A stretch of DNA of 33,285 bases from an uncultured Eubacteriales bacterium (GTDB lineage: Bacteria > Bacillota > Clostridia > UBA1381 > UMGS1253), in assembly GCA_900550065.1 (NCBI GenBank), contig URQR01000002.1:1-33285 (forward strand), given 5' to 3'. Positions 1,936 through 33,285 of the stretch are shown one piece after another. The notes under the pieces are model-generated. The model saw only the letters and a list, made by a program, of their open reading frames with translations. It had not been told where the DNA came from and made no database searches. How positions within the stretch are numbered: the first letter of the stretch is position 1; each line of letters opens with the position of its first letter. A program made the translations under genes and the position numbers.

Positions 1936-2539
1936 CAAAAAAGGGCTACTGCTGGTCGTATCCGGCCCGTCGGGCGCGGGAAAGGGCACGGTGTGTAAGC
2001 GGCTGGTGGAAAAGCGTGACGATGTATTTTTATCTGTGTCGGCGACGACGCGCGCCCCGCGCGAGGGCGAAATAAACGGTAAACATTACCACTTTATCAG
2101 CGAGGCCGATTTTGAAGAGCGGATTCGGACGGGCGGAATGCTTGAGCACGCGGTCTTTTGCGGCAATTACTACGGCACGCCGAAGCAGGCGGTCGACGAG
2201 ATGCTCGCGGCCGGTAAAAACGTTATCTTGGAAATCGAGGTACAGGGCGCGATGAAGGTCCGCAGCCACTACCCGGAGGGCGTTTATATCTTTGTGCTGC
2301 CGCCGTCAATGCAGGAGCTTCGCAAACGGCTGACGGAGCGCGGAACGGAAGCGCCCGAGGTCGTGGAGGAGCGGCTTGGCACGGCGGCATGGGAGTTTAC
2401 GCATATTCAAAAATATAATTACATTTTATTAAACGACGATGTGGAAAAGGCTGTATGTAGGCTCGAGGCAATCATTGATGCGGAGCATTGCAGGACAGAA
2501 AGAAATATAAATTTTATTGAAGAGGTGTGTCATTCATGA
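1928..2539 (+). CDS. gmk: Guanylate kinase
   Basis: P-loop [18 protein letters not shown] and GxxYxF motifs. The start overlaps the remA stop (ATGACTGA). Confidence 0.93.
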
Positions 2540-2817
2540 TTTATCCCCCGATTGGAGATTTGGTACAAAAGACGAAAACGAGATACTCTTTGGCGATTTT
2601 GACTGCGCGGCGCGCGCGCCAGCTCGGCGCGGAAAGCGGCGGCGAGTTCGACGGAAAATTTGACGAGGCGATTTTAGAGGCAATTGACGAAATTAATGAC
2701 GGCAAGGTTACGGCAAGGCCGAAGAACTACTATTTTGACTACGTAAGCCCGTCCGAGCAGAAGGCAGTAGAAAAAGAGGAAGAGGCACTTTTGGAAGAAG
2801 ACGGCGAGGAAGCGTAA
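2536..2817 (+). CDS. rpoZ: DNA-directed RNA polymerase subunit omega
   Basis: [30 protein letters not shown] is a typical omega N-terminus. I chose ATG 2536 (AGAGGTG SD 8 nt upstream) over the track's GTG at 2527. It has an acidic C-terminal tail. Confidence 0.88.
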   Translation: MIYPPIGDLVQKTKTRYSLAILTARRARQLGAESGGEFDGKFDEAILEAIDEINDGKVTARPKNYYFDYVSPSEQKAVEKEEEALLEEDGEEA

Positions 2818-2855
2818 GAAAAGGCGGTTGAATTGCGCAGGGAGGAGGCGGCTTC

Positions 2856-4067
2856 ATGTTGAAAGGAAAATGCGTTGTAGTCGGCGTATGCGGTGGTATC
2901 GCGGCGTATAAGACGGCGGCTGTCGTGAGCGGGCTTAAAAAGCTCGGCGCGGAGGTACATGTCATCATGACAAAAGCTGCGCAGGAATTTGTCGGTAAGC
3001 TCACGTTCCAGACACTGTCGCAAAATCTTGTGACGGACGAGATGTTTGCCGAGCCGAAAAAGTGGGACGTCGAGCACGTCGAACTGGCGCAGAAGGCGGA
3101 CTTGCTTTTAGTCGCGCCTGCGACAGCAAACACGATTGCAAAAATGGCAAACGGCATCGCCGACAATATGCTCACGTGCGTGTACCTTGCGACAGAAGCG
3201 CCCGTGCTGCTTGCGCCTGCGATGAACAAAAATATGTACGCGCACGATGCAACGGTACAGAACCTACAAAAACTCGCGGCGCGCGGCTGTAAATTTGTCG
3301 AGCCGGGCGAGGGGTTTTTGGCCTGCGGCGTAACGGGTAAGGGACGTATGTCCGAGCCGGAAGAAATCATAGATGCGGTGGTCGGTGAGCTGGCGTATGA
3401 AAAGGATTTGCGCGGGCTGAAGGTGCTGGTGAGCGCAGGTCCGACGCAGGAGCCGGTCGATCCGGTGCGTTTTTTGACGAACCACTCGTCCGGCAAAATG
3501 GGCTACGCGATTGCGCGCGCGGCAAAACGGCGCGGCGCGGACGTTGTGCTCGTAAGCGGCAAGACGGCGCTTACGCCCGTCCGGGGCGTTAAAATGGTGT
3601 CCGTCGGAAGTGCGCAGGAAATGCACGACGCGATTGTATCGCGCAGCGCAAACTGTGATATTATCGTGAAGGCAGCGGCTGTGGCGGATTATACGCCGGT
3701 ACAGACGGCGGAGCAGAAGATGAAAAAGTCGGACGGCGAGATGACAATTGCGCTGCGGCGTACGCCGGACATTTTGCGCGAGCTTGGCGAGAAAAAACCG
3801 GCGGGACAGGTGCTCGTTGGCTTCTGTATGGAGACGCAGGATTTACTCGAACATGCGCGCGAAAAGCTTGTGCGTAAAAATTGTGATTATATTATTGCAA
3901 ATAACCTCTTTGTGCAGGGCGCGGGCTTTGGCGTTGACACGAACACGGTGACGATTCTTGGCGCGGACGGCTCGCAGGTAGAGCCGGGTAATCTGCCCAA
4001 AGACGCGCTTGCGCATGTGATTTTAGATATTGCAAAGAAAACGTACGACGAAAAGAACGGGCTGTGA
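2856..4067 (+). CDS. coaBC: Bifunctional phosphopantothenoylcysteine decarboxylase / phosphopantothenate-cysteine ligase
   Basis: The N-terminal flavoprotein domain (GVCGGIAAYK, PAMNxxM) plus the C-terminal DFP/CoaB domain (SAGPTxEPVDPVRFLTNHSSGKMG) give 403 aa. GGGAGGAGG SD. Confidence 0.93.
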   Translation: MLKGKCVVVGVCGGIAAYKTAAVVSGLKKLGAEVHVIMTKAAQEFVGKLTFQTLSQNLVTDEMFAEPKKWDVEHVELAQKADLLLVAPATANTIAKMANGIADNMLTCVYLATEAPVLLAPAMNKNMYAHDATVQNLQKLAARGCKFVEPGEGFLACGVTGKGRMSEPEEIIDAVVGELAYEKDLRGLKVLVSAGPTQEPVDPVRFLTNHSSGKMGYAIARAAKRRGADVVLVSGKTALTPVRGVKMVSVGSAQEMHDAIVSRSANCDIIVKAAAVADYTPVQTAEQKMKKSDGEMTIALRRTPDILRELGEKKPAGQVLVGFCMETQDLLEHAREKLVRKNCDYIIANNLFVQGAGFGVDTNTVTILGADGSQVEPGNLPKDALAHVILDIAKKTYDEKNGL

Positions 4068-6565: not shown

Positions 6566-6568
6566 ATA

Positions 6569-6587
6569 CGCAAGCCGTTGGCTTACG
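6569..6587 (+). other. Stop-proximal hairpin related to the one after yicC
   Basis: CGCAAGCC-GTT-GGCTTACG (7 of 8 bp) directly after the priA TAA. It shares ATAAATACGCAAGCCG with 1321..1336. Confidence 0.35.
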
Positions 6588-6635
6588 CATGTTGAAATAT
6601 AATGGAACAGAACATAAATTAGGAGTGTGAGAAAT

Positions 6636-7100
6636 ATGGCAATTCGGTTTATCCGGGAGGAAGGCGATGAAGTACTGCGTAAAAAAAGCCGTGAGGTGAC
6701 GGTGTTCGACGCGCGGCTTCACACGCTGCTCGACGATATGTTTGACACGATGTACAGCGCGGACGGCGTGGGGCTGGCGGCGGTACAGGTTGGTATTTTA
6801 AAGCGCGCGATTGTAATTGACACGCGTGGTGAGGACGAGAAAATCGAGTTGATTAACCCTGTCATCGTGTCTGTTGAAGGAGAGCGCAGAATACCGGAGG
6901 CGTGTTTGAGCGTGCCGGGCGTGCGCGGGTATGTCATCCGCCCGGAAAAGGTGACGGTACGCGCAAAGGACCGCTTTGGCGTGGAGCACGAGTATACGGG
7001 CGAAGGGCTTTTAGCGCAGGCGTTCTGTCACGAGATTGAACACCTTGACGGCGGCCTGTTTATTGACAAGGTTGAAGAATATATCGAAGACGACGAATAA
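6636..7100 (+). CDS. def: Peptide deformylase
   Basis: Motifs GVGLAAVQVG, EACLSVPG and HEIEHLDG. I preferred ATG 6636 (TAGGAG SD 10 nt upstream) over the track's GTG 6627. Confidence 0.93.
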   Translation: MAIRFIREEGDEVLRKKSREVTVFDARLHTLLDDMFDTMYSADGVGLAAVQVGILKRAIVIDTRGEDEKIELINPVIVSVEGERRIPEACLSVPGVRGYVIRPEKVTVRAKDRFGVEHEYTGEGLLAQAFCHEIEHLDGGLFIDKVEEYIEDDE

Positions 7101-7130: not shown

Positions 7131-8069
7131 ATGCGGATAGTATTTATGGGAACGCCGGGCTTTGCGGCGGGATGTTTAGAGGCACTGGTGCAGGCAGGAC
7201 ATAATGTGGCTGCGGCGGTAAGCCAGCCGGACCGCCCAAAAGGACGCGGGCATAAGGTGCAGCCGACGCCGGTGCATGCTTGCGCGCAGGCGCACGGTAT
7301 CCCCATCTATCAGCCGCAGGTGATTAAAAACGGCGAGCTAGAGGATGTGCTGCAAAAGGCTGCGCCCGATGTAATTGTTGTGGTTGCATACGGGAAAATT
7401 TTACCGGAGTCTATTTTAAACTTTCCGAAATACGGCTGTATCAATGTCCATGCGTCTCTCTTGCCGAAGTACCGGGGTGCGGCGCCGATACAGTGGAGTA
7501 TTATAAACGGCGAGCGTGAAACGGGCATCACGACGATGTACATGGCGCAGGGGATTGATACGGGCGATATGATTTTAAAACACGCGATACCAATCGCGGC
7601 GGAGGAAACGGCGGGGACGCTGCACGATAAGCTGATGGCGCTTGGCGCGCAGACGCTGATTGAAACGCTTGAACGAATCGAAAACGGCACTGCGCCGCGC
7701 GAGCAGCAGGACGATAGCCAAAGCTGCTATGCGCCGATGATTGATAAGACGACGGCGCTGATTGAGTGGGATAAATCTGCACAGGAGATTTGTAACCTAA
7801 TCCGCGGCATGAACCCGTCCCCATTTGCGTATACTACGTATAAAGGCGCGCGGATGAAAATCGGTACGGCGGCGGTGTCGGATGTTGTGCCGGAGGCTGT
7901 GCCGGGAACGGTTTTGTGCGCGGGGCGCGACGGGCTTTTGGTGTGCTGCGCTGACAGCGCGCTATTGGTAAAGACTGTGCAGTTTGACGGAAAGAAAATG
8001 ATGCCCGTGGGCGACTATCTTGCGGGCCATACCATAGAAGAAGGAACTGTTTTAGGCAGGGAGGAATAA
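7131..8069 (+). CDS. fmt: Methionyl-tRNA formyltransferase
   Basis: MRIVFMGTPxFA N-terminus, HASLLPKYRGAAPIQW motif and a C-terminal formyl-transferase domain. def-fmt is a conserved pair. Confidence 0.93.
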   Translation: MRIVFMGTPGFAAGCLEALVQAGHNVAAAVSQPDRPKGRGHKVQPTPVHACAQAHGIPIYQPQVIKNGELEDVLQKAAPDVIVVVAYGKILPESILNFPKYGCINVHASLLPKYRGAAPIQWSIINGERETGITTMYMAQGIDTGDMILKHAIPIAAEETAGTLHDKLMALGAQTLIETLERIENGTAPREQQDDSQSCYAPMIDKTTALIEWDKSAQEICNLIRGMNPSPFAYTTYKGARMKIGTAAVSDVVPEAVPGTVLCAGRDGLLVCCADSALLVKTVQFDGKKMMPVGDYLAGHTIEEGTVLGREE

Positions 8070-8072
8070 GAT

Positions 8073-8771
8073 ATGCCACTGTACTACCCGTTTTTTGACA
8101 ATACGTATCTTGTTTTTGTGCTGATTCCGGTGCTTGTCTCGATTTGGGCGAGTGCGAGGGTTAATTCGACGTTTAAAAAATATTCCGATTACCGCAACGC
8201 GAGGAATCTGACTGCGGCGGAGGTGACGCGTATGATTCTCGACCGAAACGGGCAGCAGAACGTGCACATAGAGCGTGTGGGCGGCAGCTTGACCGACCAT
8301 TACGACCCGCGCGACAATACAATCCGCCTGTCGGAGAGCGTATACGACTCGACCTCCTGCGCAGCGATTGGCGTTGCGGCGCACGAGGCGGGCCATGCCG
8401 CACAGCACGCGAAGGGCTATGTGCCGATCAAAATCCGCAATGCGCTCGTGCCGGTGGCGAATTTTGCCTCGCGGCTGGCGGTGCCGCTCGTTTTGCTCGG
8501 CTTTATCATGGAGCTTGGCGGCTTGGTCGACTTTGCGATTATCTTGTATGGCGCGGTCGTGCTCTTTTCGCTGATTACCCTGCCGGTGGAATTTGATGCG
8601 AGCCGGCGCGCGGTCGTGACGCTCGACGAGTATGGAATTTTATCAACAGAAGAAAACGCGGCGGCGAAAAAAGTGCTCCGTGCGGCGGCGATGACGTATG
8701 TTGCGTCGATGCTGGTAGCGCTCGGCAGCTTTTTACGGATTTTGACGCTGTTTGGAAGAAGACGGGACTAA
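8073..8771 (+). CDS. Membrane zinc metallopeptidase, YugP-like (Zn_peptidase_2 family)
   Basis: An N-terminal TM segment, an HEAGHAAQH zinc-binding motif and C-terminal hydrophobic segments. 232 aa, as is typical for the family. Confidence 0.8.
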   Translation: MPLYYPFFDNTYLVFVLIPVLVSIWASARVNSTFKKYSDYRNARNLTAAEVTRMILDRNGQQNVHIERVGGSLTDHYDPRDNTIRLSESVYDSTSCAAIGVAAHEAGHAAQHAKGYVPIKIRNALVPVANFASRLAVPLVLLGFIMELGGLVDFAIILYGAVVLFSLITLPVEFDASRRAVVTLDEYGILSTEENAAAKKVLRAAAMTYVASMLVALGSFLRILTLFGRRRD

Positions 8772-8774
8772 ACG

Positions 8775-10115
8775 ATGGAGCAGAAAACAGGCGGCGCGCG
8801 CGTTTGCGCGCTGAAAATACTATATAAAATTGAACAAGAGGGAGCGTTTGCGAATATTGCGCTCAAGGAGGCGCCCGGACTGCGGGCATTGTCCGCACCG
8901 GACAGAGGCCTTGTGACGACGCTCGTGTACGGCTGTGTGCGCTATAAACGCTATCTTGACTATATTATCACGCAGTTTTCGAGCGTGAAGCTTAAAAAGC
9001 TTTCGCCATATGTACTGCTTTTGCTGCGTATGGGGACGTACCAGATTATGAAGCTTGACCGTGTGCCGGACAGGGCGGCGGTCGACGAATGTGTGAAGTT
9101 AGCGGGAAAGTACGCCTACCGTTCAAAGGGATTTGTGAACGCGGTTCTGCGCAAGATAGCGGCGCAAAAGCAGCAGATTCGGCTGCCGGAGGAAACGGCA
9201 CAGCGGCTTGGCGTGCAGTATTCCTACCCAGACGAAATTGTATCGGCGTGGCTTGACGCGTATGGTGCGGCTTTTACAGAAGAGCTGCTCGCGGCGGGGA
9301 ATGAGAGCGCGCCGCTCACGGTGCGGGTCAACACGCTGAAAACGGACGAGACGTCGTTAACGGAGCGCCTAAAGACAGAGGGTGTCCATGTAGAAAACGC
9401 GAACGTGGCGGGTATGCTTTCGCTGGGCGGAACAGAAATTCCTGCGCTCGAAAGCTACCGTGCGGGTCTGTTTACGCCGCAGGGGATGGCCTCCTATTTG
9501 GCGGGGGCGGTGCTTGCGCCGCGGCCGGGGGACACAGTTTTGGATTTGTGCGCCGCGCCGGGCGGCAAAAGCACGCACCTTGCGGAGTTGATGCAAAATA
9601 AAGGAAACGTATATGCGTTCGATATCCACGCACATAAAATTGCGCTGATTGAACAAAATGCGGCCCGCCTTGGCATCAATATCATCACGGCGGCACAGGC
9701 CGACGCTTCCGTGCCGATGGAGCGGTTTTTCGGCTGTGCGGACGCGGTTTTGGCGGACGTGCCGTGTAGCGGTCTTGGTATTATCCGCAAAAAGCCGGAC
9801 ATCAAGTGGGGCTTTGACGCGGCGGGACAGGACGCGCTCGCGGAGCTGCAATATCGGATTTTGTCGGCGGCGGGGCGGTATGTAAAGGCAGGCGGTACGC
9901 TCGTGTACAGCACATGTACGATTGCAGAAAAGGAAAACAACGCGGTTGTGGAGCGGTTTCTGCGCGAAAACGGCGATTTTGCGCTGGACGGCTTTGCGGA
10001 CGTACTGCCGGATAAAATGCAAAAGACGACCGCAAAGGACGGATATATACAGTTTTTCCCGCATACGGACGGGATTGACGGGTTTTTTATTTGCAGGATG
10101 AAGCGGAAAAGCTGA
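8775..10115 (+). CDS. rsmB: 16S rRNA (cytosine967-C5)-methyltransferase
   Basis: An N-terminal NusB-like domain plus a SAM methyltransferase core (DLCAAPGGKS, DVPCSGLGIIRKKPDIKW, YSTCT). fmt-rsmB is a conserved neighbourhood. Confidence 0.9.
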   Translation: MEQKTGGARVCALKILYKIEQEGAFANIALKEAPGLRALSAPDRGLVTTLVYGCVRYKRYLDYIITQFSSVKLKKLSPYVLLLLRMGTYQIMKLDRVPDRAAVDECVKLAGKYAYRSKGFVNAVLRKIAAQKQQIRLPEETAQRLGVQYSYPDEIVSAWLDAYGAAFTEELLAAGNESAPLTVRVNTLKTDETSLTERLKTEGVHVENANVAGMLSLGGTEIPALESYRAGLFTPQGMASYLAGAVLAPRPGDTVLDLCAAPGGKSTHLAELMQNKGNVYAFDIHAHKIALIEQNAARLGINIITAAQADASVPMERFFGCADAVLADVPCSGLGIIRKKPDIKWGFDAAGQDALAELQYRILSAAGRYVKAGGTLVYSTCTIAEKENNAVVERFLRENGDFALDGFADVLPDKMQKTTAKDGYIQFFPHTDGIDGFFICRMKRKS

Positions 10116-12066: not shown

Positions 12067-14029
12067 ATTTATACAGATCGGCTCGCTGCTGGGCGGGCGG
12101 TATGAAATCATTGAAAAGATTGGCGCGGGCGGTATGGCGGAGGTTTATAAGGCGCGCTGCCGCCTGCTAAATCGCTATGTTGCGATTAAGGCGCTTAAGC
12201 CGGAATATGCGGGCGATGCGGAGTTTCTGAAACGGTTTGAAATCGAAGCACAGGCGGCGGCGAGCCTGTCGCACCCGAACATCGTGTCGGTGTATGACGT
12301 GGGCTATGACGCAGGCCGTCACTATATTGTGATGGAGCTTGTCGAGGGCGTGACGCTTAAGGGCTATATTGCAAAGAAGGGGGCGCTCCCGTGGCGGGAA
12401 GCGGCCGGCTTTGCTGCACAAATTTGCTCCGCGCTCGAATGTGCGCACAAAAAACGAATTATTCACCGCGACATCAAGCCGCACAATATTATTATCACGC
12501 CGGAAGGCGTCGCGAAGGTGACCGATTTTGGTATTGCGCGGGCGGCCAGCTCGACGACGATGGTCGCCGACGGCTCTGTCATGGGGTCGGCGCATTATCT
12601 TTCGCCGGAGCAGGCGCGCGGCGGCTATACAGACGAAAAATCCGATATTTATTCAGCCGGTGTGACGCTGTATGAAATGCTGACGGGGCGCGTACCGTAT
12701 GAGGCGGACAGCCCGGTGTCCGTCGCGATGATGCATGTGTCGGGCGATCTGGTTCAGCCGCGTATCATCAATCCGGACATTCCGGAGGATATGGAAAAGA
12801 TTGTACTTAAAGCAATGAGTAAGGAGCAGTCCTTGCGCTATGCAAGTGCGGAGGATATGCTCTATGACATCAATGCGGTGCTGTCGAACCGCGCAATCGC
12901 GCCCGCGCCGGAGCCGACGCAGGTGATGGAGGGGCGTGCCCGTGAGGGAGCGCGCCGCAGAGGGGCGCAGGCCGCGTCCGACACGGCGCATCAAGCAAAA
13001 AACAAATCAAAAGGGAAAAAGGACAAACAGCCGCTTACAAAGAGTGAGAAGCGGATGGTGTGGCTTGCAGTTGCGGCGGCGGTCGTTTTGATTGGGATTG
13101 TCGGCGTTGTCTGCATGTCGTGGTTTGGCGTGTTCGGTGCGTGGCAGTGGGACGAAACGGTTGTGCCGGAAATTGAGGGTAAAACGCTGGAGGAAGCGAC
13201 GAAGCTGCTAAAGGATGCAAAGTTAGAGATTGACATTGACGAGGAGATTGCGTCGACCCAGTACGAAAAGGACACGATTATTTCGCAGGAGCCGGCTGCG
13301 GGCCGGACTGTAAAAAAAGGCGTCAAAGTGCGCGTCAAGGTCAGCACAGGGATCGGCGACAAGATTTCGATTCCAAATGTTGTAAACTATGAAAAAGAAA
13401 ACGCGAAATCCACGCTGGAAAAGTCGGGCTTTGTAGTCGTGTTTACAGAAGAGGAAAGCGATACTGTGCCGGAAAATACAGTTATACGGCAGTCACCGGC
13501 CGCGGGGACAGAGGCCAAGAGCGGCGATACGGTGCGGCTGTATGTCAGCGGGAAGGCGGCGAGCGAAAAGGTGCCGGTGCCGAACGTAATCGGCAAGTCG
13601 CTCGCACAGGCAAAAAATGATATAGAGGCGGCGGGCCTTGTTGTAGGCAATGTCGCCGAGCAGGAGTCCGAGCAGGCGGTCGGGACAGTGATCCGGCAGA
13701 GCCCGTCGGGCGGCATGGCAGATAAAAAGAGCGCAGTCGCGCTTACGGTAAGCAAGGGGCAGAAGGCGACACCGACACCAACGCCGAATACACCAACGCC
13801 GCCTCCACCGTCCGAGGAGCCGCAAAAGGTGAAGACGATTAGCCTGCCTGTGCCTCAGAACAAAGAATCGACCCAAATTCGCGTTGTCGCCAATGGGACG
13901 ACAATCCATGATGCGCTTCACCACAAGAGCGAGGTCAGCTTCGATTTGCGCGTGACGGGCCGCAATACGGCGACGCTGGAAATTTATCACGACGGCACGC
14001 TTGTAGGAACGCAGACGGTGAATTTTTAA
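12059..14029 (+). CDS. prkC: Ser/Thr protein kinase with three PASTA repeats (PrkC/PknB type)
   Basis: Hanks kinase motifs (GAGGMAEVYKA, HRDIKPHN, DFGIA, SPEQA), a TM segment (VWLAVAAAVVLIGIVGVVC), three PASTA repeats, a Pro/Thr linker and a terminal beta-rich domain. I set the start at ATG 12059 (MSEFIQIGS...), overlapping the stp stop. The track's upstream extension from 11975 lies inside stp. Confidence 0.92.
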   Translation: MSEFIQIGSLLGGRYEIIEKIGAGGMAEVYKARCRLLNRYVAIKALKPEYAGDAEFLKRFEIEAQAAASLSHPNIVSVYDVGYDAGRHYIVMELVEGVTLKGYIAKKGALPWREAAGFAAQICSALECAHKKRIIHRDIKPHNIIITPEGVAKVTDFGIARAASSTTMVADGSVMGSAHYLSPEQARGGYTDEKSDIYSAGVTLYEMLTGRVPYEADSPVSVAMMHVSGDLVQPRIINPDIPEDMEKIVLKAMSKEQSLRYASAEDMLYDINAVLSNRAIAPAPEPTQVMEGRAREGARRRGAQAASDTAHQAKNKSKGKKDKQPLTKSEKRMVWLAVAAAVVLIGIVGVVCMSWFGVFGAWQWDETVVPEIEGKTLEEATKLLKDAKLEIDIDEEIASTQYEKDTIISQEPAAGRTVKKGVKVRVKVSTGIGDKISIPNVVNYEKENAKSTLEKSGFVVVFTEEESDTVPENTVIRQSPAAGTEAKSGDTVRLYVSGKAASEKVPVPNVIGKSLAQAKNDIEAAGLVVGNVAEQESEQAVGTVIRQSPSGGMADKKSAVALTVSKGQKATPTPTPNTPTPPPPSEEPQKVKTISLPVPQNKESTQIRVVANGTTIHDALHHKSEVSFDLRVTGRNTATLEIYHDGTLVGTQTVNF

Positions 14030-14031
14030 GA

Positions 14032-14910
14032 GTGGGGGGTCTTGGTCTGACTGGCGTAATTATAAAGGGAATCGGCGGCTTTTACTATGTAAAGGCCGAA
14101 GATGAGATTTTTGAATGTAAGGCGCGGGGCCGGTTTCGTAAGGAGGGCCTTGTGCCAATGGTGGGCGATACGGTAAGTATAAGCGTCAAAAACGGCAAGG
14201 GGAGTATTGACGAAATTTTGCCGCGTACAACGATGCTGATTCGGCCCGCGGTCGCCAATATCGACCAGCTTGTGGTTGTTGTCGCGCTCCGCTCGCCCGA
14301 GCCGCACGCTGCCCTGATTGACCATTTTTTGATTCTCGGCGAGCATAGCGGTATTGAAACGGTGCTATGCTTTAATAAAGCGGACTTACCGCATACACAG
14401 GAGCTTGTGGACATCTATCGAAACGCCGGTTACCGCGTCGTTTTGACGAGCGTGGAAACAGGCGAGGGCGTCGAGGAGCTAAAAAGCTTGTTAAAGGGTA
14501 AAATTACCGCGTTTGCGGGGAATTCCGGCGTCGGAAAGTCGAGCCTTCTAAACGCGCTTGGTGCGCCGGAGGGATTGGAGACCGGGCGCGTCAGCGAGAA
14601 AATCCAGCGTGGACGGCATACGACGCGCCATGTTGAGCTGATTGAGCTGGACGGCTGCGCGCTGGCGCTCGATACGCCGGGGTTTTCGAGCTTTGAGATG
14701 CCTGCGGTGAAAGCGGAAGAGCTGCAAGATTATTTTATCGAATTTGCGTCGTATATTGGGGGCTGCAAATTCCGCGGCTGCGCGCACATCAGTGAGCCGG
14801 GCTGCGCGGTGTTAGAGGCCGTAGCGCAGGGCAAGGTGTCGAAGCTGCGCCATAATAGCTACAAAGAGCTGTATCAGGAATTAAAGAAAGTGAAAGAATG
14901 GGAAACATGA
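14032..14910 (+). CDS. rsgA: Ribosome small-subunit-dependent GTPase A
   Basis: An OB-fold N-terminus (GFYYV), circularly permuted GTPase motifs (NKADL ... GNSGVGKSSL ... DTPG) and a C-terminal zinc knuckle (CKFRGCAHISEPGC). Confidence 0.92.
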   Translation: MGGLGLTGVIIKGIGGFYYVKAEDEIFECKARGRFRKEGLVPMVGDTVSISVKNGKGSIDEILPRTTMLIRPAVANIDQLVVVVALRSPEPHAALIDHFLILGEHSGIETVLCFNKADLPHTQELVDIYRNAGYRVVLTSVETGEGVEELKSLLKGKITAFAGNSGVGKSSLLNALGAPEGLETGRVSEKIQRGRHTTRHVELIELDGCALALDTPGFSSFEMPAVKAEELQDYFIEFASYIGGCKFRGCAHISEPGCAVLEAVAQGKVSKLRHNSYKELYQELKKVKEWET

Positions 14911-27309: not shown

Positions 27310-27690
27310 ATGGATAAGTTGGTGATAGAGGGCGGAAAAACGCTGGAGGGCGAGGCGCGCGTACACGGTGCGAAAAACGCCGTATTGCCGATTTTGGCCG
27401 CTACGGTTTTAAACAGTGGAAAAAACGTGATCCACGGCTGTCCGGATTTAAAGGACGTCCGCTCGTCAATCAATATCCTGCGGCATTTGGGATGCGGCGT
27501 ACATAGAGAGGGCGACACACTGATTGTCGATTCCGCCGGGATTACGAACTGTGAAATACCGGAGGGGTTGATGCATGAGATGCGTTCATCCGTTATCTTT
27601 TTGGGGGCAATCCTTGCCCGGTTCGGCCGGGCGGTGACATCGCTGCCGGGAGGCTGTGAATGCTTGTTGTGCCGGTGCAGTGCTGCGTAG
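27310..27690 (+). pseudogene. murA: UDP-N-acetylglucosamine 1-carboxyvinyltransferase, 5' fragment only (truncated)
   Basis: MDKLVIEGGKTLEGEARVHGAKNAVLPILAA...SLPGGC matches the MurA N-terminus up to the active-site PGGC (Cys116, codon 27655..27657). The expected AIGxRPxD continuation is absent. Instead there are 10 unrelated codons and a TAG at 27688..27690. Full-length MurA is ~420 aa; this ORF is 126 aa. Confidence 0.8.
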
Positions 27691-27708
27691 CATACGCGCA
27701 CACAACAA
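27664..27708. repeat. Imperfect nested palindrome at the murA/island junction
   Basis: The outer arms TTGTTGTG (27664..27671) and CACAACAA (27701..27708) enclose the inner stem GCGTA-GCA-TACGC (27685..27697). Confidence 0.5.
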
Positions 27709-27779
27709 TGATTTGATATCAGTCCCGGGCAGCGTTTATTTTTACAATTCCTACATAATAAAATTGATTCAAAAGCTTA

Positions 27780-28430
27780 TTATACGATATCCCTTACAAT
27801 TTCGTCTAAAGATTTAGTAATCACGTGAAGGCAAAACTCTTTTATCATTTCAAGGCCTTCTTCCTTATCGCCGTATTGTTGGCCTGTTAGAGGCGATTCG
27901 ACTGCAAACATTAAATCCTTTAGTACTAATAAACCATCCTCGCCGTGGCAGATGTCACGGTATTTTTTTATGTACTGCAATAAAACACCGAACCGGTCGT
28001 GGGAGATTAGGTTATTGAGCAAGTCTAAGGTTATTTGTGCCTGCCGCATTGTGTAGGGCAAGACGTCGTTTTCGTAATCGAAGCCCAACGCTTCAAATTT
28101 TTCCCTATTTTCCTGTGCCATTCCTGTCGAAAGAAGCTTTTGGCCCGCAAAAAATTTCATCGTATCTTCGGAGAGGCCTGCTTGCTGTACGGTTAAATTT
28201 GCTTCCATATCAAGCCGAAAGTCGGAAAACCCAATCAAATAATCACACGAAACGCCCAAATACTGTGCCATTTTTGCAGCGAGGTCAATATCCGGCGAAC
28301 GCTTGCCCAAAATGTAGTAATTGATACTTTGTCGGGAACAATTCATCTTTTCTGCAAATTCTCCCTGTGAAATATTCTTTTCTGTCAGTAGGGAGAGCAG
28401 CCGCTGTCCAAACATTTGTTGCAAATCCAT
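27780..28430 (-). CDS. XRE-family helix-turn-helix regulator with a ~150-aa C-terminal domain of unknown function
   Basis: MDLQQMFGQRLLSLLTEKNISQGEFAEKMNCSRQSINYYILGKRSPDIDLAAKMAQYLGVSCDYLIG is a classic HTH_3/XRE domain. I set the start at ATG 28430 (AAGGAG SD 7 nt upstream). The track's upstream start at 28481 has no SD. Confidence 0.85.
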   Translation of the reverse strand: MDLQQMFGQRLLSLLTEKNISQGEFAEKMNCSRQSINYYILGKRSPDIDLAAKMAQYLGVSCDYLIGFSDFRLDMEANLTVQQAGLSEDTMKFFAGQKLLSTGMAQENREKFEALGFDYENDVLPYTMRQAQITLDLLNNLISHDRFGVLLQYIKKYRDICHGEDGLLVLKDLMFAVESPLTGQQYGDKEEGLEMIKEFCLHVITKSLDEIVRDIV

Positions 28431-28451
28431 GTAAAAAACTCCTTTGTGTAT

Positions 28452-28483
28452 ATATTTGTTGCTATAGAAAATAAAATGCAATT
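28452..28483. promoter_or_regulatory. Conserved 32-nt block in the xre / module-1 divergent intergenic region (candidate operator)
   Basis: ATATTTGTTGCTATAGAAAATAAAATGCAATT matches 31309..31339 (ATATTTGTTGTGATATAAATAAAATGCAATT) at 28 of 32 aligned columns. It sits just upstream of the -35 of the module-1 promoter. Confidence 0.4.
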
Positions 28484-28489
28484 TAAGTA

Positions 28490-28519
28490 TTGACGAAATT
28501 TGGTATTATGGCCTATAAT
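28490..28519 (+). promoter_or_regulatory. SigA-type promoter candidate for island module 1
   Basis: TTGACG (28490..28495), an 18-nt spacer, TATAAT (28514..28519), about 70 nt upstream of the 28588 start. Confidence 0.55.
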
Positions 28520-28587
28520 TATTCTACGCAACAAAAGAGCGGACGTCAAGGGATAAGAAAAAATTAAAAAAAGGGGAGCGATGGAAA

Positions 28588-29874
28588 ATGCAAAACAGAC
28601 TGTTGGAAAAAGACACGGGCGCCAAAACACCAAGGTGGGAGTTTGCGTTCTTGAGCGGTTTAACAGGGGAACCAGCCGGCCGGTTTTACAAGGTTGTACC
28701 CGAGAACACCGCGTCCACGTGCAAAAAGTGCAGCGAGATGGGGAATCAATTGTTTTTGATTCGGGAGGCGGTAAAGGGGAAAAACTTCCCGCCGTTTCAC
28801 CCGCACTGTCGCTGTACGGCGGTCGATAAGGACGGAAAGCGGGTTGTACTATGGATTGACCGCTACATCGGCACGATGCAGCAGTGCTATGGATTTACAG
28901 AAGAGGAAAGCGAGCTCATTTTGCAGGCGTACCGCCTTCTGTCCAACGAGGCTAAGCGGCTGGGCCTGTCACGGCAGCAGCAGATTCACCATGTTTTCTC
29001 GAAGATGGCGGCGTTGTGCGACGCATATTCGGGTGAAAATTTTATATTTAGAGCCGCCGCCAGACACCCCTCCACCGAAGAGGCAAAGCTGCACCTGATT
29101 GCGCTGGGGATGGGGGAAAATGATACGGAAGCCCTGTACAAGGCAATTATGCGTCAGTATTATTCACAGATTGATGAGATAGACTTTGCGCATGAGCTGG
29201 CAGTTATATCGATTGCGGCAGAGGATTTCATCATTAACAATACGGTAGATGCGCTATTTGCGGACTTGACCGCTGTGGGGAGCTATAAAGGCGACGTGTT
29301 TTCCGCGTCTATGCCGCCGGACGACATGAACGCGGATGTGGACGGGACGAACGTGTATAATCGTATGCTGTCGGGCAATAAAGGATTTTTCGACATTCTT
29401 ATCGAATATAACGAGGGAGTGAAAGACGGCACAATTAACCGAGTGGACGAGTTTTTGCGGTTCTATGGAGATGGGGATACGAAGAAGGGGTTACAGTATA
29501 TAAAAGATGATTTGCTGAATGTGGATATGGCGTCGCATTATTTGAGTGAGACGTATTATAAAATCCCCGATGATACTTGGGAAAAAATAAAGGAAACAAC
29601 AGGACTTGACAGTGAAATAATCAGAAAAATACCGGGTTATGGTTTAGAAACGGCCGGAGATTTATTTATCAAGACTCTGTTACTCTTACCCGGAGTGAAT
29701 TTTATTAACAAAGTATCGGGCGCTGATTTATTAAGTAAGACCAATGCAAACAGATCGTTTGAGGAAAGCAAGGCATATGCAGAGAGTAAAGAGGGAAAGG
29801 AAAAAAACGTAAAGAGTATCACAGAAGTAAGTGAAGCATTTATCAAATATTTAGAGGAAGGGATGAGTAAGTGA
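28588..29874 (+). CDS. Module-1 head protein: truncated MuF/SPP1-gp7-like N-terminal motif fused to a ~345-aa C-terminal region of unknown function (toxin-like architecture)
   Basis: A GGGGAG SD lies 9 nt upstream of the ATG. Residues 31-76 read GRFYKVVPENTASTCKKCSEMGNQLFLIREAVKGKNFPPFHPHCRC, the CxxC...PPxHPxCRC signature that closes phage MuF-type head-morphogenesis domains. I recognised no catalytic motif in the remainder. It has no signal peptide. Confidence 0.6.
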   Translation: MQNRLLEKDTGAKTPRWEFAFLSGLTGEPAGRFYKVVPENTASTCKKCSEMGNQLFLIREAVKGKNFPPFHPHCRCTAVDKDGKRVVLWIDRYIGTMQQCYGFTEEESELILQAYRLLSNEAKRLGLSRQQQIHHVFSKMAALCDAYSGENFIFRAAARHPSTEEAKLHLIALGMGENDTEALYKAIMRQYYSQIDEIDFAHELAVISIAAEDFIINNTVDALFADLTAVGSYKGDVFSASMPPDDMNADVDGTNVYNRMLSGNKGFFDILIEYNEGVKDGTINRVDEFLRFYGDGDTKKGLQYIKDDLLNVDMASHYLSETYYKIPDDTWEKIKETTGLDSEIIRKIPGYGLETAGDLFIKTLLLLPGVNFINKVSGADLLSKTNANRSFEESKAYAESKEGKEKNVKSITEVSEAFIKYLEEGMSK

Positions 29875-30551
29875 AAGAAAAAATAAAGCTTAGTTGTGGA
29901 CTTGGCTGTGGGACAGTATTAATTCTGTTTATTGTAGGAATTATTTTTTTAAAATTAATATTCTACATACCACCAACTATATTTATAGAAAATAAGGCAA
30001 TTGGTTATATCATTGAACACATTGATGAGTTTAAGGATGAGATTAATGCAATGGGGTATGAGGTTAGGGTGGCGTATACGTTGGGGGAGATGTTGGGAGA
30101 GGATTTTGAAGAAGATGAATACAGTAATAAACAAACAAAGCTTGGATATAACGACCGTGGAATACTAATCTTATCAGCAGGCAATGACGAGTATCGGTTT
30201 GATACTGGCATAGAATACTACAAGACATATATTAACGATGGGGCGACTTTTCTAGCTATGTCTAAGAGTAATGAGAATGAGGTTTTAGATTTAGATAGCG
30301 GAAATGATGTATACCCTGTCCGCGTAACTTTAAACAATGAAGAGATTGACAATTACTGGATAAGCTCGCTTTGGAATGACTATAACATTAGTTTTACCGA
30401 AGCAAGAGAGGTTGGGTTACACGGTGTTCAAAAACAGGCCGATAGTTGGATAAAAAAATACATCTCCGCAGAGGAGCTGCGTGCGATATACGAGCGGTGC
30501 ATTGGATTGCAGGAGAAGCTGGTGGAGATGTACAAAATGAGGAAGGGATGA
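29871..30551 (+). CDS. Module-1 partner protein A: N-terminally membrane-anchored, candidate immunity protein
   Basis: The GTG start overlaps the upstream stop (GTGA). MKEKIKLSCGLGCGTVLILFIVGIIFLKLIFYI is a basic N-terminus plus one TM segment. It is a paralog of the next gene. Confidence 0.6.
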   Translation: MKEKIKLSCGLGCGTVLILFIVGIIFLKLIFYIPPTIFIENKAIGYIIEHIDEFKDEINAMGYEVRVAYTLGEMLGEDFEEDEYSNKQTKLGYNDRGILILSAGNDEYRFDTGIEYYKTYINDGATFLAMSKSNENEVLDLDSGNDVYPVRVTLNNEEIDNYWISSLWNDYNISFTEAREVGLHGVQKQADSWIKKYISAEELRAIYERCIGLQEKLVEMYKMRKG

Positions 30552-30555
30552 GTAA

Positions 30556-31164
30556 GTGAAAGAAAAAATAAAGCTTGGCTGTGGACTTGGCTGTGGGACA
30601 GTATTAATTTTTTTTATTTTAGGATTTATTTTTTTGAGGTTACTTGTCTATGCACCACCAACTGTATTTATAGAAAATAAGGCAATTGGTTATATCATTG
30701 AGCACGTGGACGAGTTTAAGGGTGAAATTAACGCAATGGGATATGAGGTTAGGGTGGCGTATACATTAGGAGAACGCAAGAAGAAGTATAATCCAGCCGA
30801 TCAGGGGTTACAGAAGAAAATGGGGTATAGAGAACGGGGAATTTTAATTTTAGAAAGGGAAAACGAAGAGTACGTATTTGACGTTGGTTTTGACTATTGT
30901 AACATAGAGTTGGAGGATGATAGGACTGTATTTATGCGTAAAGGACGACAAGTGTCAATTTATAGTCAATATAACTCTACAAATAGTAATCATTATAATA
31001 TTGATTTTACCGAGGCCGATAGTATTGGGCTACACGGCGCAGAACGACGGATTGACAAACAAATCAAAGAACACATCTCCGCCGAGGAGCTGCGTGCGAT
31101 ATACGAGCGGTGCATAGGCTTGCAGGAGCGGTTAGTGGAGTTGTACAAGGCGAAGAAGGGATAG
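30556..31164 (+). CDS. Module-1 partner protein B: paralog of 29871..30551
   Basis: The first 73 aa are nearly identical to the upstream gene (MKEKIKLGCGLGCGTVLIFFILGFIFLRLLVY...EVRVAYTLGE), as is the C-terminus (ISAEELRAIYERCIGLQERLVELYKAKKG). The centre is diverged and shorter. Confidence 0.6.
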   Translation: MKEKIKLGCGLGCGTVLIFFILGFIFLRLLVYAPPTVFIENKAIGYIIEHVDEFKGEINAMGYEVRVAYTLGERKKKYNPADQGLQKKMGYRERGILILERENEEYVFDVGFDYCNIELEDDRTVFMRKGRQVSIYSQYNSTNSNHYNIDFTEADSIGLHGAERRIDKQIKEHISAEELRAIYERCIGLQERLVELYKAKKG

Positions 31165-31168
31165 TGAA

Positions 31169-31203
31169 AAAGAGCAAATCCGAAAAAGATTTGCTCTTTT
31201 TTG
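31169..31203 (+). terminator. Rho-independent terminator closing module 1
   Basis: AGAGCAAATC (31171..31180), loop CGAAAAA, GATTTGCTCT (31188..31197), followed by a T-run. The 10-bp perfect stem can be extended by A-T pairs. Confidence 0.8.
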
Positions 31204-31211
31204 TTAAAAGG

Positions 31212-31288
31212 ATTTTTCGACATCCCCCTATGAGAAATTATTTCTATAAATACAACAAATGCTGTATAAACTCTTGTTGTAAACCCGT
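31212..31288 (-). pseudogene. Decayed 5' remnant of an XRE regulator gene (paralog of 27780..28430)
   Basis: The minus-strand reading ACG GGT TTA CAA CAA GAG TTT ATA CAG CAT TTG TTG TAT TTA TAG gives (T)GLQQEFIQHLLYL*, against MDLQQMFGQRLLSLL of the intact gene. The start codon is ATG>ACG and a stop follows after 14 codons. The DNA aligns by hand to 28345..28430 (27 of 35 matches in the best stretch). Confidence 0.6.
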
Positions 31289-31308
31289 GAAAAAATATTC
31301 TTTTGAGC

Positions 31309-31339
31309 ATATTTGTTGTGATATAAATAAAATGCAATT
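31309..31339. promoter_or_regulatory. Second copy of the conserved upstream block
   Basis: See 28452..28483. This is the best-conserved part of the duplicated xre/promoter region, lying ~80 nt upstream of the module-2 start. Confidence 0.4.
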
Positions 31340-31418
31340 AAAATAATAACAAAATTTCAAAAGTGACGTATACCTCATGCTAACAACAAACGTACGTTTC
31401 GTTAAGTGATAATATTTT

Positions 31419-32396
31419 ATGGGCGGCTATACAAAAAAAGAAACTGTTGGTATAATAAAACAAACGGATGTACCCCAACAGGGTGTATTTTTCCATACCA
31501 AAAAGTATGCTGCGGATGGAACGTTTTACAGAATCATTGCCGAGCCGTCTCCCACCCAATGCAGCCATTGCGCACAAATGCAGGGCGTGGTCCTGTACGG
31601 GAGCGCGGCGGAAATCGCGAAGGTGCTGCCACCGTATCATCCGAACTGCCGGTGTAAATATGAGGAATTGGACGAGGCAACCTACCGCTTTTTAGTGATG
31701 CAAGCGGAAATCCAAATGAGTGGAAAGCTGACGGACGTAGGTAAGGGCGTATATGTGTTTGATGTGTTTGGTAGGTATGGGTTTAATAAAACAAGCGATA
31801 CTTCTGTCTTTGGTATTCTCGATAAGGCGATTGGTAAGGAAAGTGCGACAAATTTATTATGGAAACACAGAGGGGCCCCTCTCCTACGTATTGATTTACC
31901 ACAGGCAAATCAACATTCCAATGGCAAACCAATTGATTTTAATCATATGCATCTTGATTCATCTTTACCAAATGCCAAAGAAGGCCATATCAAGATATCG
32001 GATAATATAATTGATTTAGGCGTAAGCGCCAACAAGGCAGGAAAAGTACTCAAGGTTGGCGGAAAAGCGGCTGCTGTCGTTGGCGTCGTACTGGATGTAG
32101 CTGATATTGGAACAGCCATGTACGAGGACGGCGGCTGGGGTGAGAACACAAATGTTGCAGTTGGCGGCGCGGCCGGCAGTTGGGCTGGCGGCGCAGTTGG
32201 TGCAAAAGCAGGGGTGGCGATTGGAACAGCGATTGGGGCGATGTTCGGCGGTGTGGGAGCAGCGCCGGGCGCGGCGATTGGCGGTCTTGTCGGCGGCCTG
32301 ATTGGCAGTATCGGCGGCGCAGTTGGCGGCCGTTGGCTTGGCGAACAGGCGGGAGAGTTAGTCAATGATACAGCAGCGTACAACAGTCAAAATTAA
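31419..32396 (+). CDS. Module-2 head protein: truncated MuF-like N-terminal motif, a middle region of unknown function, and a C-terminal glycine-zipper (membrane-active toxin-like)
   Basis: Residues 34-79 read GTFYRIIAEPSPTQCSHCAQMQGVVLYGSAAEIAKVLPPYHPNCRC, homologous to the module-1 head. Residues ~213-308 are Gly/Ala/Val/Ile-rich with repeated GxxxG/GxxxA spacing (GGAAGSWAGGAVGAKAGVAIGTAIGAMFGGVGAAPGAAIGGLVGGLIGSIGGAVGG). It has no SD upstream, and an in-frame TAA at 31410..31412 fixes the ATG as the first possible start. Confidence 0.55.
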   Translation: MGGYTKKETVGIIKQTDVPQQGVFFHTKKYAADGTFYRIIAEPSPTQCSHCAQMQGVVLYGSAAEIAKVLPPYHPNCRCKYEELDEATYRFLVMQAEIQMSGKLTDVGKGVYVFDVFGRYGFNKTSDTSVFGILDKAIGKESATNLLWKHRGAPLLRIDLPQANQHSNGKPIDFNHMHLDSSLPNAKEGHIKISDNIIDLGVSANKAGKVLKVGGKAAAVVGVVLDVADIGTAMYEDGGWGENTNVAVGGAAGSWAGGAVGAKAGVAIGTAIGAMFGGVGAAPGAAIGGLVGGLIGSIGGAVGGRWLGEQAGELVNDTAAYNSQN

Positions 32397-32408
32397 GGAG
32401 GGACAAGC

Positions 32409-33077
32409 ATGGGAATATTAAATGGACTGGCTGAGTCGTATAAAGCTTGGAAACAGAGGCAGGCGGATCGGGAAGCCGAGTGGCGGGCGCAAATGCAGCA
32501 TGGATTTTCATACATTGATTTAAAGCGTTTGGACGACGGTACACTTTACGTTTCAACGGAGCCGGTTCCTTATCGAAGCTGGGATGGAACATTATTTAAT
32601 CTTATGATGGTTGATTCGATCTATGCGCTTTTAAAAGGGCGTCATGTTCTTGGAAAAAGCTTTGAGGACATGGACTTAAGCCAGTTTGATAACCTTTATG
32701 AAATTATCAATTTTGATATAGCATTGGGCGCTTGTCTGATTGGTAAGAATAAAATGCTTTTAACAAACGATTTTAACAAGCGGTTAGTCGCAGATTTGGT
32801 TTTTGAAACCCAGGCAATGGAGTATGAAGACTCTGTAAAGCTATTTGCAATTGAAAAGGACGTCTTTGACCGACTGAAAAGCGGTGCGCTGACTGCTGAG
32901 GCGTGCATGGAACAAGAAAATTATGACTTTTACATTGGCTCGGGAGCAGATCACGACTATTTCACAGTCTACCGCCCGTCGCACGAGTATGGCGATATAA
33001 TTGAGGTGATAGAAGAGGTTATGGCTCCGTATGGGCTTGCGGTGAAATATGGGGAGGGACAAGCATGGGAATATTAA
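32409..33077 (+). CDS. Module-2 partner protein A: soluble 222-aa protein, candidate immunity protein
   Basis: An AAGGAGGG SD lies 6 nt upstream. I saw no TM segment and recognised no family. It sits immediately downstream of the glycine-zipper protein. Confidence 0.5.
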   Translation: MGILNGLAESYKAWKQRQADREAEWRAQMQHGFSYIDLKRLDDGTLYVSTEPVPYRSWDGTLFNLMMVDSIYALLKGRHVLGKSFEDMDLSQFDNLYEIINFDIALGACLIGKNKMLLTNDFNKRLVADLVFETQAMEYEDSVKLFAIEKDVFDRLKSGALTAEACMEQENYDFYIGSGADHDYFTVYRPSHEYGDIIEVIEEVMAPYGLAVKYGEGQAWEY

Positions 33078-33285
33078 AATGGTTAAAGGAACGCAGAGAA
33101 AGATACAAGTCATTGATTGAATATGCGCCCACCAAATATGAAGAAAGCCTTTATATTTCTTTATATCAAGATAGGCTTTATGTGTCAATTGATGAGACGT
33201 CTATCTATTATTATGGAAAACATGTTTTAGAAACCATCATCTGCGACTTAATCTATACCTTACTGAAACCGCACGCTGTCATCGC
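33065..33285 (+). CDS. Module-2 partner protein B (partial; continues beyond the window), distant paralog of 32409..33077
   Basis: Hand translation gives MGILKWLKERRERYKSLIEYAPTKYEESLYISLYQDRLYVSIDETSIYYYGKHVLETIICDLIYTLLKPHAVI..., open to the window end. It has the same 26-nt SD/start string as the upstream gene and shares the MGIL, LYVS and IYxLLK features. It overlaps the upstream stop by 13 nt. Confidence 0.5.
   Translation, partial: MGILKWLKERRERYKSLIEYAPTKYEESLYISLYQDRLYVSIDETSIYYYGKHVLETIICDLIYTLLKPHAVI

Follow-up and report, generated by a model that had tools for sequence, protein, structure and literature searches.

The stretch of DNA analysed here (33,285 nucleotides, contig URQR01000002.1 of an uncultured Eubacteriales bacterium; hereafter the window, position 1 being its first letter) contains an AT-rich island from position 27660 onward. 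We found that this island interrupts the cell-wall gene murA. It is probably mobile and under XRE control, with polymorphic toxins and immunity genes that serve competition between bacteria. In the window it comprises a regulator gene of the XRE family and two toxin operons, in which each toxin starts with a short module related to the end of the phage MuF head-morphogenesis domain and is followed by paralogous partner genes. The anatomy of the island, the homologies of its genes, the insertion and the polymorphism between strains were observed. The host, a gut species of the Clostridia, is close to Candidatus Aphodoplasma.

An earlier sequence-only reading of the window had reported an abrupt switch of composition at about position 27658. 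The GC content bears this out, being 0.537 in positions 1-27659 and 0.426 in positions 27660-33285, and the lowest value of chromosomal windows of equal length is at least 0.514. Within the island the GC content is uneven, 0.58 in the glycine-rich part of the toxin 2 gene and 0.38-0.40 in the partner genes of toxin 1. The switch corresponds to the left junction (attL) of an element within the murA coding sequence. The murA 5' fragment (27310..27659, plus strand) comprises codons 1-117, ends in ...SLPGGCE and matches positions 2-116 of 417 of the EPSP_synthase profile (E 1.3e-17); the break falls directly after PGGCE, in the catalytic-cysteine loop (SLPGGC/E). The open reading frame (ORF) of 126 amino acids called at 27310-27690 on the plus strand is the murA start reading into the element, with a stop at 27690. 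The attL core repeat, TCGCTGCCGGGAGGCTGTGA (27640..27659), forms the left boundary, aligns with intact murA and recurs with 19 of 20 positions at the right junction of the sister-strain contigs L018, L019 and L020. The location inside the dcw cluster, as described in the earlier reading, is correct, but the description was incomplete, for the element splits murA.

The sister strains were found through 78-80% homologues of toxin 2 (head2), and they contain the complete element (L018, L019 and L020) or its right end (L121 and L122). The gene order on the left is murG, the 5' part of murA, the XRE gene, a head1-type toxin gene with its partner or partners, a head2-type toxin gene with its partner, and a DUF4176 gene. 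On the right follow an ORF of 56 amino acids, a large serine recombinase gene (521 amino acids; domains Resolvase, Recombinase and Zn_ribbon_recom), the 3' part of murA, ftsQ, DUF881, DUF1290 and ftsZ. Both ends carry the junction repeat TCGCTGCCGGG[A/C]GGCTGTGA (20 bp, 19/20 identical), and the stop codon of the recombinase is located 2 nucleotides before the right copy (attR) in all three complete elements. The element of L018 is 7,087 bp long, with the murA parts at 6567-6916 and 14004-14904. Its removal in silico gives an in-frame MurA of 416 amino acids, which shares 91% identity with the intact MurA of Candidatus Aphodoplasma excrementigallinarum. None of the 80 top-scoring MurA loci in reference genomes is interrupted; murA is split in every retrieved assembly of this species, and the left junction is the same in ten assemblies from different samples. 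We propose that a large serine recombinase inserted a small integrative element into the catalytic-cysteine codons of murA, and that the window would hold the left two-thirds of it.

Because the window shares 98% identity with L018 as far as P1a, the first partner gene of toxin 1, and its last 233 nucleotides (33053-33285) are 100% identical to positions 1333-1565 of L121, the start of a full-length partner of 219 amino acids, we infer that the element of the window is about 8.4 kb long and would include the DUF4176 gene, the recombinase gene and the 3' part of murA. The lack of an integrase in the earlier reading was an effect of the window end, since the sister strains close the element with the serine recombinase. 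The public contigs with head1, head2 or the second toxin 1 partner (P1b) all end within the partner array, P2a (the first partner of toxin 2) has no exact protein record, and an exact search with the last 36-mer of the window gave no match in the JGI metagenomes. The 56-amino-acid ORF, at 12150-12320 of L018 and called as a gene in L020 and L122, might encode a recombination directionality factor; it lies between the DUF4176 terminator and the recombinase. In L121, ftsZ (7193-8276) appeared as two ORFs of 138 and 217 amino acids with a 1-nucleotide gap relative to L018, probably a frameshift or an assembly error.

The same contigs bear on the possibility of a conventional or decayed MuF-toxin prophage, whose toxins would be packaged in the element's own capsids. 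The head module is homologous to phage minor head proteins and the XRE regulator resembles phage repressors, as a prophage origin would predict. However, complete elements of 7.1 kb lack portal, terminase, capsid, tail and lysis genes: none of these phage structural genes was found in L018 and L019 or in the right ends L121 and L122. The absence of portal, terminase and capsid genes, already remarked on for the window, thus extends beyond it, and no complete prophage cluster follows downstream in the sister strains. The toxins retain no more than the final third to half of the MuF domain, and IMG/VR contained no relatives of head1, head2 or the recombinase. The sister-strain contigs largely refute a prophage, and we give this explanation almost no credence.

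The insertion is similar to the intervening elements skin in sigK, SPbeta in spsM and gin in gerE (PMC5595907, PMC4191935), which also have a serine recombinase at the edge, are inserted within a coding sequence and leave a rebuilt ORF on excision, here in silico; the likeness to gin extends to the lack of phage genes. The differences are the target, a housekeeping cell-wall gene in the dcw cluster where theirs are mother-cell sporulation genes, the toxin/immunity cargo, and that the present element is known from its junctions and the in-silico splice. Besides carrying toxins, the element might be a gene-intervening switch, in which the recombinase excises it and rebuilds murA, regulating peptidoglycan precursor synthesis. 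We regard this as doubtful, at the level of a minority possibility. Precise excision would give the full ORF of 416 amino acids, the recombinase gene abuts attR, and intervening elements with a serine recombinase but no phage are known from gin in gerE (PMC5595907). The split murA compared with the intact orthologue showed a ratio of non-synonymous to synonymous substitution rates (dN/dS) of 0.048, with equal or smaller distances to outgroups and no rate acceleration, and the 3' fragments of two element-bearing strains differ by 48 synonymous and 6 non-synonymous codons. This low dN/dS is compatible with a gene still in use through excision, as in skin and gin.

However, recombination may have brought in the signal of purifying selection from strains whose gene is intact, because divergence is locally raised in the murA 3' fragment and ftsQ (4-6%, against 0.5-1.5% in the recombinase gene and ftsZ). 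The junctions expected after excision are GGTGACATCGCTGCCGGGMGGCTGTGAGCTGGGACC for attB and AATGTAGATTCGCTGCCGGGMGGCTGTGAATGCTTG for attP. The 20-mer of the att core gave ten matches in the JGI metagenomes, none from this species, and no attB or attP junction was among them. A second murA paralogue is common in Bacillota and would make the disruption harmless, and murA is not a sporulation-specific gene.

Toxin 1 (head1; 28588..29874, plus strand, 428 amino acids) and toxin 2 (head2; 31419..32396, plus strand, 325 amino acids) start with what we call the mini-MuF head, about residues 1-80 of toxin 1 (28588-28827) and 1-85 of toxin 2. The pairwise alignment of the two proteins is limited to 46 residues (35% identity, E 1e-10), which include the motif CxxC...PP[FY]HPxCRC, and their C-termini are unrelated, so that the picture of two plus-strand units with a common N-terminal motif and different C-termini holds. 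The motif had been attributed to the end of the MuF/SPP1-gp7 head-morphogenesis domain, and Pfam, TIGR01641, phrog_115 and the phage comparison agree on this. Residues 42-78 of head1 aligned to positions 75-111 of the 112 of PF04233 (E 2.4e-5, 25.5 bits), and residues 26-80 of head2 to positions 57-110 (E 0.016, 16.4 bits). Only the C-terminal part of the domain is present, as had been supposed; its aligned extent is the last third to half of the domain. TIGR01641 matched head1 with E 1.3e-7 and head2 with E 8.4e-5, and phrog_115 (minor head protein) with E 6.6e-11 and 2.9e-6, respectively. With residues 1-92 of head1 as the tblastn query, 50,697 phage genomes gave 74 records (best E 4e-9) that aligned to head residues of about 34-85; the annotation of every listed match but one is minor head, minor capsid or capsid-and-scaffold protein. 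The homology of both heads to the C-terminal CxxC...HPxCRC part of the MuF/SPP1-gp7 domain, and to that part only, is solid at the level of sequence comparison. No complete MuF domain was found N-terminal to the toxin regions, and the ORFs leave no room for an upstream extension; judged by these profiles, the toxins of the window are not full members of the MuF domain family.

In the AlphaFold2 model the head is a small module of alpha/beta type (helix 16-26, strands 33-38, 55-57 and 76-79) with a predicted local distance difference test score (pLDDT) of about 80-85. In the alignment of ten heads (A1), residues C45, C48, H71, C74 and C76 are invariant. The model and the invariant residues suggest a compact domain of about 80 residues that may bind zinc. 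No solved MuF relative was recovered by a PDB profile search with the head alone, and a fold search of BFVD gave only short, non-significant matches to minor capsid proteins.

The A1 profile was searched against 1.84 billion representative proteins and gave 3,292 matches at E<=1e-3. Among the best 150 of them, 87 have the motif at about residues 200-330, as in full MuF proteins. In 35 of the 122 motif-bearing proteins of these 150, the motif is N-terminal (first 75 residues), and many of these start with Met and have C-terminal extensions of 200-500 residues. Judged by this share, the mini-head is a recurrent architecture and no accident of this locus. Three of ten sampled mini-head proteins have peptidoglycan hydrolase domains, namely Peptidase_M23 (E 1.7e-22), SLT (E 1.6e-7) and Amidase_2 (E 6.4e-18). 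In these proteins (P0065, P0071 and P0097) the stub was repeatedly joined to envelope-attacking enzymes. Their tblastn comparison with phages and plasmids gave matches confined to the hydrolase domains and no genomic context, and the IMG/VR scan with the SLT-bearing P0071 gave a motif-level match only.

These heads could also be 5'-truncated remnants of prophage MuF-toxin genes, silent orphan cassettes kept as a reservoir that recombines, by way of its remaining MuF piece, with a full-length gene in another part of the genome. The break at the MuF end is where, in MuF toxins, conserved sequence gives way to variable sequence (PMC5576092), and a true orphan tip does occur in this locus (L012). 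Contact-dependent inhibition (CDI) and Rhs orphan cassettes likewise have tandem immunity paralogues, an orphan tip with an immunity gene, conserved flanks that promote recombination, and reshuffling. In contrast to them, the main toxin genes here are short, have promoters of their own and lie downstream of no large parent gene. Each begins with a start codon of its own, behind a strong promoter (11/12) and conserved operator-like repeats; the 30-45 residues or so ahead of the MuF motif are conserved across homologues and species down to 43% identity; the two heads are only 35% identical; the N-terminal motif recurs with long extensions in the 35 proteins described above; and pairs stand alone among housekeeping genes. 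Silent cassettes are therefore very unlikely. The idea that the head is a conserved recombination handle is weak for the same reasons, namely the low identity of the heads, the presence of a separate start, ribosome-binding site and promoter for each, and the conservation of the N-terminal extension. Of the earlier proposal of a stand-alone or orphan toxin/immunity array, the polymorphic-toxin behaviour with downstream immunity genes is supported.

MuF polymorphic toxins (Zhang et al. 2012, PMC3482391; Jamet et al. 2017, PMC5576092) have the same CxxC...PPxHPxCRC motif followed by a variable toxin domain and an immunity gene, and their surveys define them by phage packaging neighbourhoods. The present proteins differ in that they have only positions of about 57-112 of PF04233, no head-morphogenesis module or prophage, and their own XRE-linked promoter. 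They also differ in the toxin domain of toxin 1, which belongs to the TelC clade, unlisted among the MuF fusions of the lipocone survey (PMC12419801). That survey records MuF domains fused to lipocone toxins that act on the envelope and have transmembrane immunity proteins, and it does so for Prok-SAA only.

The toxin 1 domain, not identified in the earlier reading, was assigned by fold and by sequence profile. The AlphaFold2 model (pLDDT 78.5) had TelC of Streptococcus intermedius (5UKH) as its sole significant PDB match in Foldseek (E 3.7e-4, probability 1.0). The sequence profile independently found 5ukh_A (E 2.1e-5), with the paired segments DFAHE-DFTHQ, YKGDV-WEGDT and DDMNADVDxxN-DDYKADLDSVN. 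Thirteen homologues could be aligned over the whole length from head to C-terminus (A2), and H202, D246, D250 and D252 vary little or not at all among them. The TelC clade of lipocones is marked by an Asp six residues after the helix-4 Asp (PMC12419801); toxin 1 has this residue as well as the active-site His and Asp. From sequence and model, we predict toxin 1 to be a lipid II phosphatase of the TelC type. The substrate that TelC cleaves is lipid II, and its activity is confined to the outside of the cytoplasm (PMC12419801, PMC6193138).

The strain-variable part of toxin 1 is its tail, at about residues 320-400. In P0013 the C-terminal domain follows a DUF4280 head (E 1e-16), and in P0014 a different, unrelated N-terminus; P0012 is a shorter head1 variant. 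In L012 (11921-12340) we found an orphan TelC-like toxin tip of 139 amino acids, aligned to head1 residues 265-428, which consists of the conserved segment and, after it, a variable tail of another type, and has its own P1-type gene downstream. The homologues P0006 and P0008-P0011 had weak or faint precomputed matches to PF27189 'YkzU', a family name absent from the relevant literature.

Two partner genes follow toxin 1 on the plus strand. P1a (29871..30551, 226 amino acids) overlaps the toxin gene by GTGA, and P1b (30556..31164, 202 amino acids) starts after a 4-nucleotide gap. A hairpin with a perfect 14-bp inverted repeat (I7) and a T-run (31167..31201, plus strand) is the likely terminator of this operon. 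P1a and P1b are paralogues (56% identity, E 1e-82). Each has one N-terminal hydrophobic anchor at residues 4-40 with Lys residues ahead of it, and the remainder, an alpha/beta domain in P1a (AlphaFold2 pLDDT 79), is predicted to be extracytoplasmic. The family alignment shows conserved ends, with an invariant C-terminus of 29 residues, and a hypervariable centre. All published lipocone immunity proteins are either lipoproteins or membrane-spanning (PMC12419801), and TipC, the immunity protein of TelC, acts at the outer face of the membrane (PMC12419801, PMC6193138). P1a and P1b are the presumed immunity proteins of toxin 1, P1b possibly as a second specificity; since neither a TipC sequence match nor a TipC fold match was obtained, the assignment draws on position, topology and variability. 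The TelC/TipC system of the type VIIb LXG toxins of S. intermedius (PMC5555719, PMC6193138) shares the toxin fold and motifs, membrane-anchored and outward-facing immunity (predicted here) and duplicated, variable immunity genes, and differs in that the present locus has no LXG domain, no Lap/WXG partner genes and no nearby secretion locus, and a partner that is not TipC-like. In L018 a single hybrid P1 copy stands in place of the P1a/P1b pair. Direct repeats of 85-89% identity cover the starts and ends of the P1 genes (29854-30088/30539-30773 and 30450-30549/31063-31162).

The predicted place of action argues against an intracellular toxin-antitoxin or abortive-infection module, in which the toxins would act inside the producer upon phage infection and XRE or the partners would be the antitoxins. 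Toxin modules linked to XRE regulators are common in defence islands, and the XRE protein gave weak PADLOC matches to helix-turn-helix (HTH) components, whereas the toxins and partners match no PADLOC model. TelC-type domains are reported to be inactive in the cytoplasm, in a passage of the lipocone survey that cites Whitney 2017 (PMC12419801), and the P1 partners are predicted to face outward. In addition, the C-terminal domains recur behind DUF4280 and RHS-type N-termini, typical of exported toxins, and the XRE gene is divergent and not co-transcribed with the toxins. Given TelC biology and the predicted topology of P1, an abortive-infection role, as put forward in the sequence-only reading, is very improbable.

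Toxin 2 contains 25% Gly, 17 GxxxG motifs and two hydrophobic segments in its C-terminal region. Its head is followed by a variable middle (about residues 123-200) and the glycine-zipper C-terminus (196-325). The C-terminus is common to the RHS-type proteins P0046, P0047 and P0053, whose N-termini are like RHS core ends and which gave weak matches to Gly-zipper_Omp; P0040 has a head2-type head with a different C-terminus. The glycine-zipper domain presumably inserts into membranes. Downstream, P2a (32409..33077, plus strand, 222 amino acids) encodes a soluble protein and overlaps by 13 nucleotides the 5' part of P2b (33065..33285, plus strand), which runs past the window end. These overlaps and gaps between partner genes, described before as tight coupling, were confirmed in the ORF list.

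P2a had no match in Pfam, PHROG or NCBIfam, and its similarity to the P2b fragment is weak (26%, E 0.005). The pair is confirmed as paralogous through the full-length L121 partner, 43% identical to P2a in a multiple alignment; with the P1 pair, this bears out the paralogous partners of both units. Orthologues of P2a lie downstream of head2-type toxins in L018 and L022, and a locus has between one and three P2-type partners, which are soluble. We consider P2a and P2b to be the probable antagonists of toxin 2. A DUF4176 gene (84 amino acids; PF13780, E 4.6e-24) closes the P2 array in L018, L121 and L022, and in L018 its ATG overlaps the stop codon of the partner gene (translational coupling). 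DUF4176 proteins are chaperones of type VIIb toxins, and those of the small class are proposed to shield membrane-inserting helices (PMC12478183). By description, toxin 2 may be likened to the membrane-depolarising type VIIb toxins TelE, TelD and TspA with their small DUF4176 (PMC12478183), which have a hydrophobic glycine-rich C-terminus and immunity genes, as does toxin 2, with the 84-amino-acid DUF4176 in the sister strains; the present protein differs by a mini-MuF head instead of LXG, and by soluble immunity instead of DUF443 membrane proteins.

The XRE-family regulator gene (27780..28430, minus strand, 216 amino acids) is divergent from toxin operon 1 and encodes an N-terminal HTH followed by an uncharacterised C-terminal region of about 150 amino acids. 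This minus-strand gene of the sequence-only reading was confirmed by HTH_3 (E 1.7e-13), and it also matched phrog_8 (E 1.6e-20) and the RstR family (E 1.5e-12). In the divergent promoter/operator region (28431..28587), the promoter scan found TTGACG-18-TATAAT at 28490-28519 (11/12 match) between the inverted sequences TTTGTTGC ... GCAACAAA. A second promoter/operator copy (31300..31418, plus strand; core 31325-31357) lies upstream of toxin 2 and includes a 33-nucleotide direct repeat, 85% identical to 28469-28501. The upstream regions of head1, head2 and the toxin genes of L016 and L022 align with invariant blocks, and the inverted sequences bracket the -35/-10 pair in all four; the earlier reading's view that the units have their own promoter is supported. 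The single divergent XRE probably represses both operons.

The toxin modules are also found outside this element. In L022, from another genome, a head2-type module lies in an unrelated context, and the regulator beside it is 80% identical to the XRE of the window. Tn916-like Xis and tyrosine integrase genes are located beside this module, with a HicA toxin gene downstream (2198-3690 and 13643-13801). In L016, from another species, the XRE-toxin-partner module adjoins an unrelated serine recombinase (22% identical). Pairs of toxin and partner stand alone among housekeeping genes in L108, L109 and L124. Judged by these contexts, the cargo is a unit that moves between different carriers. The L016 recombinase (7423-8853, 476 amino acids) is a called ORF seemingly without the usual N-terminal catalytic-serine segment, and a Mn_catalase gene fragment (12459-12920) overlaps the end of the last partner gene; L016 may be a decayed or differently targeted element.

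In the loci examined, partner genes are always downstream of the toxin, and their number and type vary between strains. The same head with another C-terminus (P0040) and the same toxin domain behind other heads (P0013 and P0014), for which a search in related genomes had been suggested, were both found. With swapped C-termini, the orphan tip and differing immunity arrays, the proteins behave at the sequence level as polymorphic toxins.

In the mechanism that we propose for the competition island, two operons with near-identical promoter/operator regions would each encode a polymorphic toxin and then its immunity genes. Toxin 1, by analogy with TelC, would have to reach the outer face of the membrane to act, and the membrane-anchored P1a and P1b would neutralise it there. 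Toxin 2 would put its glycine-zipper domain into membranes, and the soluble P2a and P2b would neutralise it. The mini-head may be a conserved trafficking or stability domain of the family. We infer the toxicity, the immunity pairing, the control of the toxins by XRE and the export.

Several points weigh against this reading. Both toxicity and immunity are predictions from sequence and modelled structure. The fold match of toxin 1 to TelC is moderate (TM score 0.38/0.50, 0.50 on the target; root-mean-square deviation 12 Å), and P1a had no significant PDB fold match, TipC included. Both heads fall under the curated cut-offs of PF04233 (29.6 bits) and TIGR01641. The DUF4176 gene, the recombinase gene and attR were seen in the sister strains, outside the window, and are extrapolated to it from the 100% identity over the last 233 nucleotides.

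Export is the least certain step, and the following estimates are conditional on the competition island. We tentatively place export through the type VIIb secretion of the host first, with DUF4176 as the chaperone, at clearly below an even chance. This route is favoured because DUF4176 is present and both toxin domains resemble types of type VIIb LXG toxins. Against it, no fetched locus has an LXG domain, Lap-type genes or secretion apparatus, and small DUF4176 genes are reported in variable contexts. An LXG/WXG100-type N-terminal domain was not found, Pfam at E<=1 giving Phage_Mu_F alone for both toxins; the genes upstream are not of Lap type, being the divergent XRE for head1, and P1b with the terminator for head2; and the fetched flanks contained no EssC or EsxA.

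Loading into helper-phage virions through the MuF stub is possible at a lower probability. It is favoured because of the stub itself, the envelope-acting enzymes in the mini-head family and the published MuF-lipocone fusions (PMC12419801), and it is opposed by the lack of a portal or terminase gene near any locus. Some other route takes the remaining share. We might also speculate that the stub is a portable targeting tag, with which a non-phage island loads envelope-attacking effectors (lipid II phosphatase, pore former and, in relatives, M23, SLT and amidase hydrolases) into helper-phage virions or another export machine, while the serine recombinase makes murA a reversible switch; one mobile element would then couple the synthesis of peptidoglycan precursors to the release of a toxin that destroys lipid II. 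This combination is unlikely.

The window before the element (1-27300) is ordinary chromosome with yicC, gmk, coaBC, priA, fmt, rsmB, rlmN, a PASTA kinase gene, rsgA and the dcw cluster (mraW ... murG). All these genes are on the plus strand, with positive GC skew.

The components of the island are of known kinds, that is, MuF toxins, TelC-type lipocones, glycine-zipper toxins, DUF4176 and serine-recombinase elements, and we have not found their combination described. The locus breaks the association of MuF toxins with prophage modules and that of TelC toxins with LXG/type VII delivery. If the mini-head is a trafficking signal, it would point to an unrecognised export route or to a wider substrate range of type VII secretion or phage capsids. 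The murA gene, cut at its catalytic-cysteine codons in a gut commensal, serves as a case in which the interruption of a gene other than a sporulation gene can be tested. Such islands are probably under-reported, since metagenome assemblies break at the repeated immunity genes.

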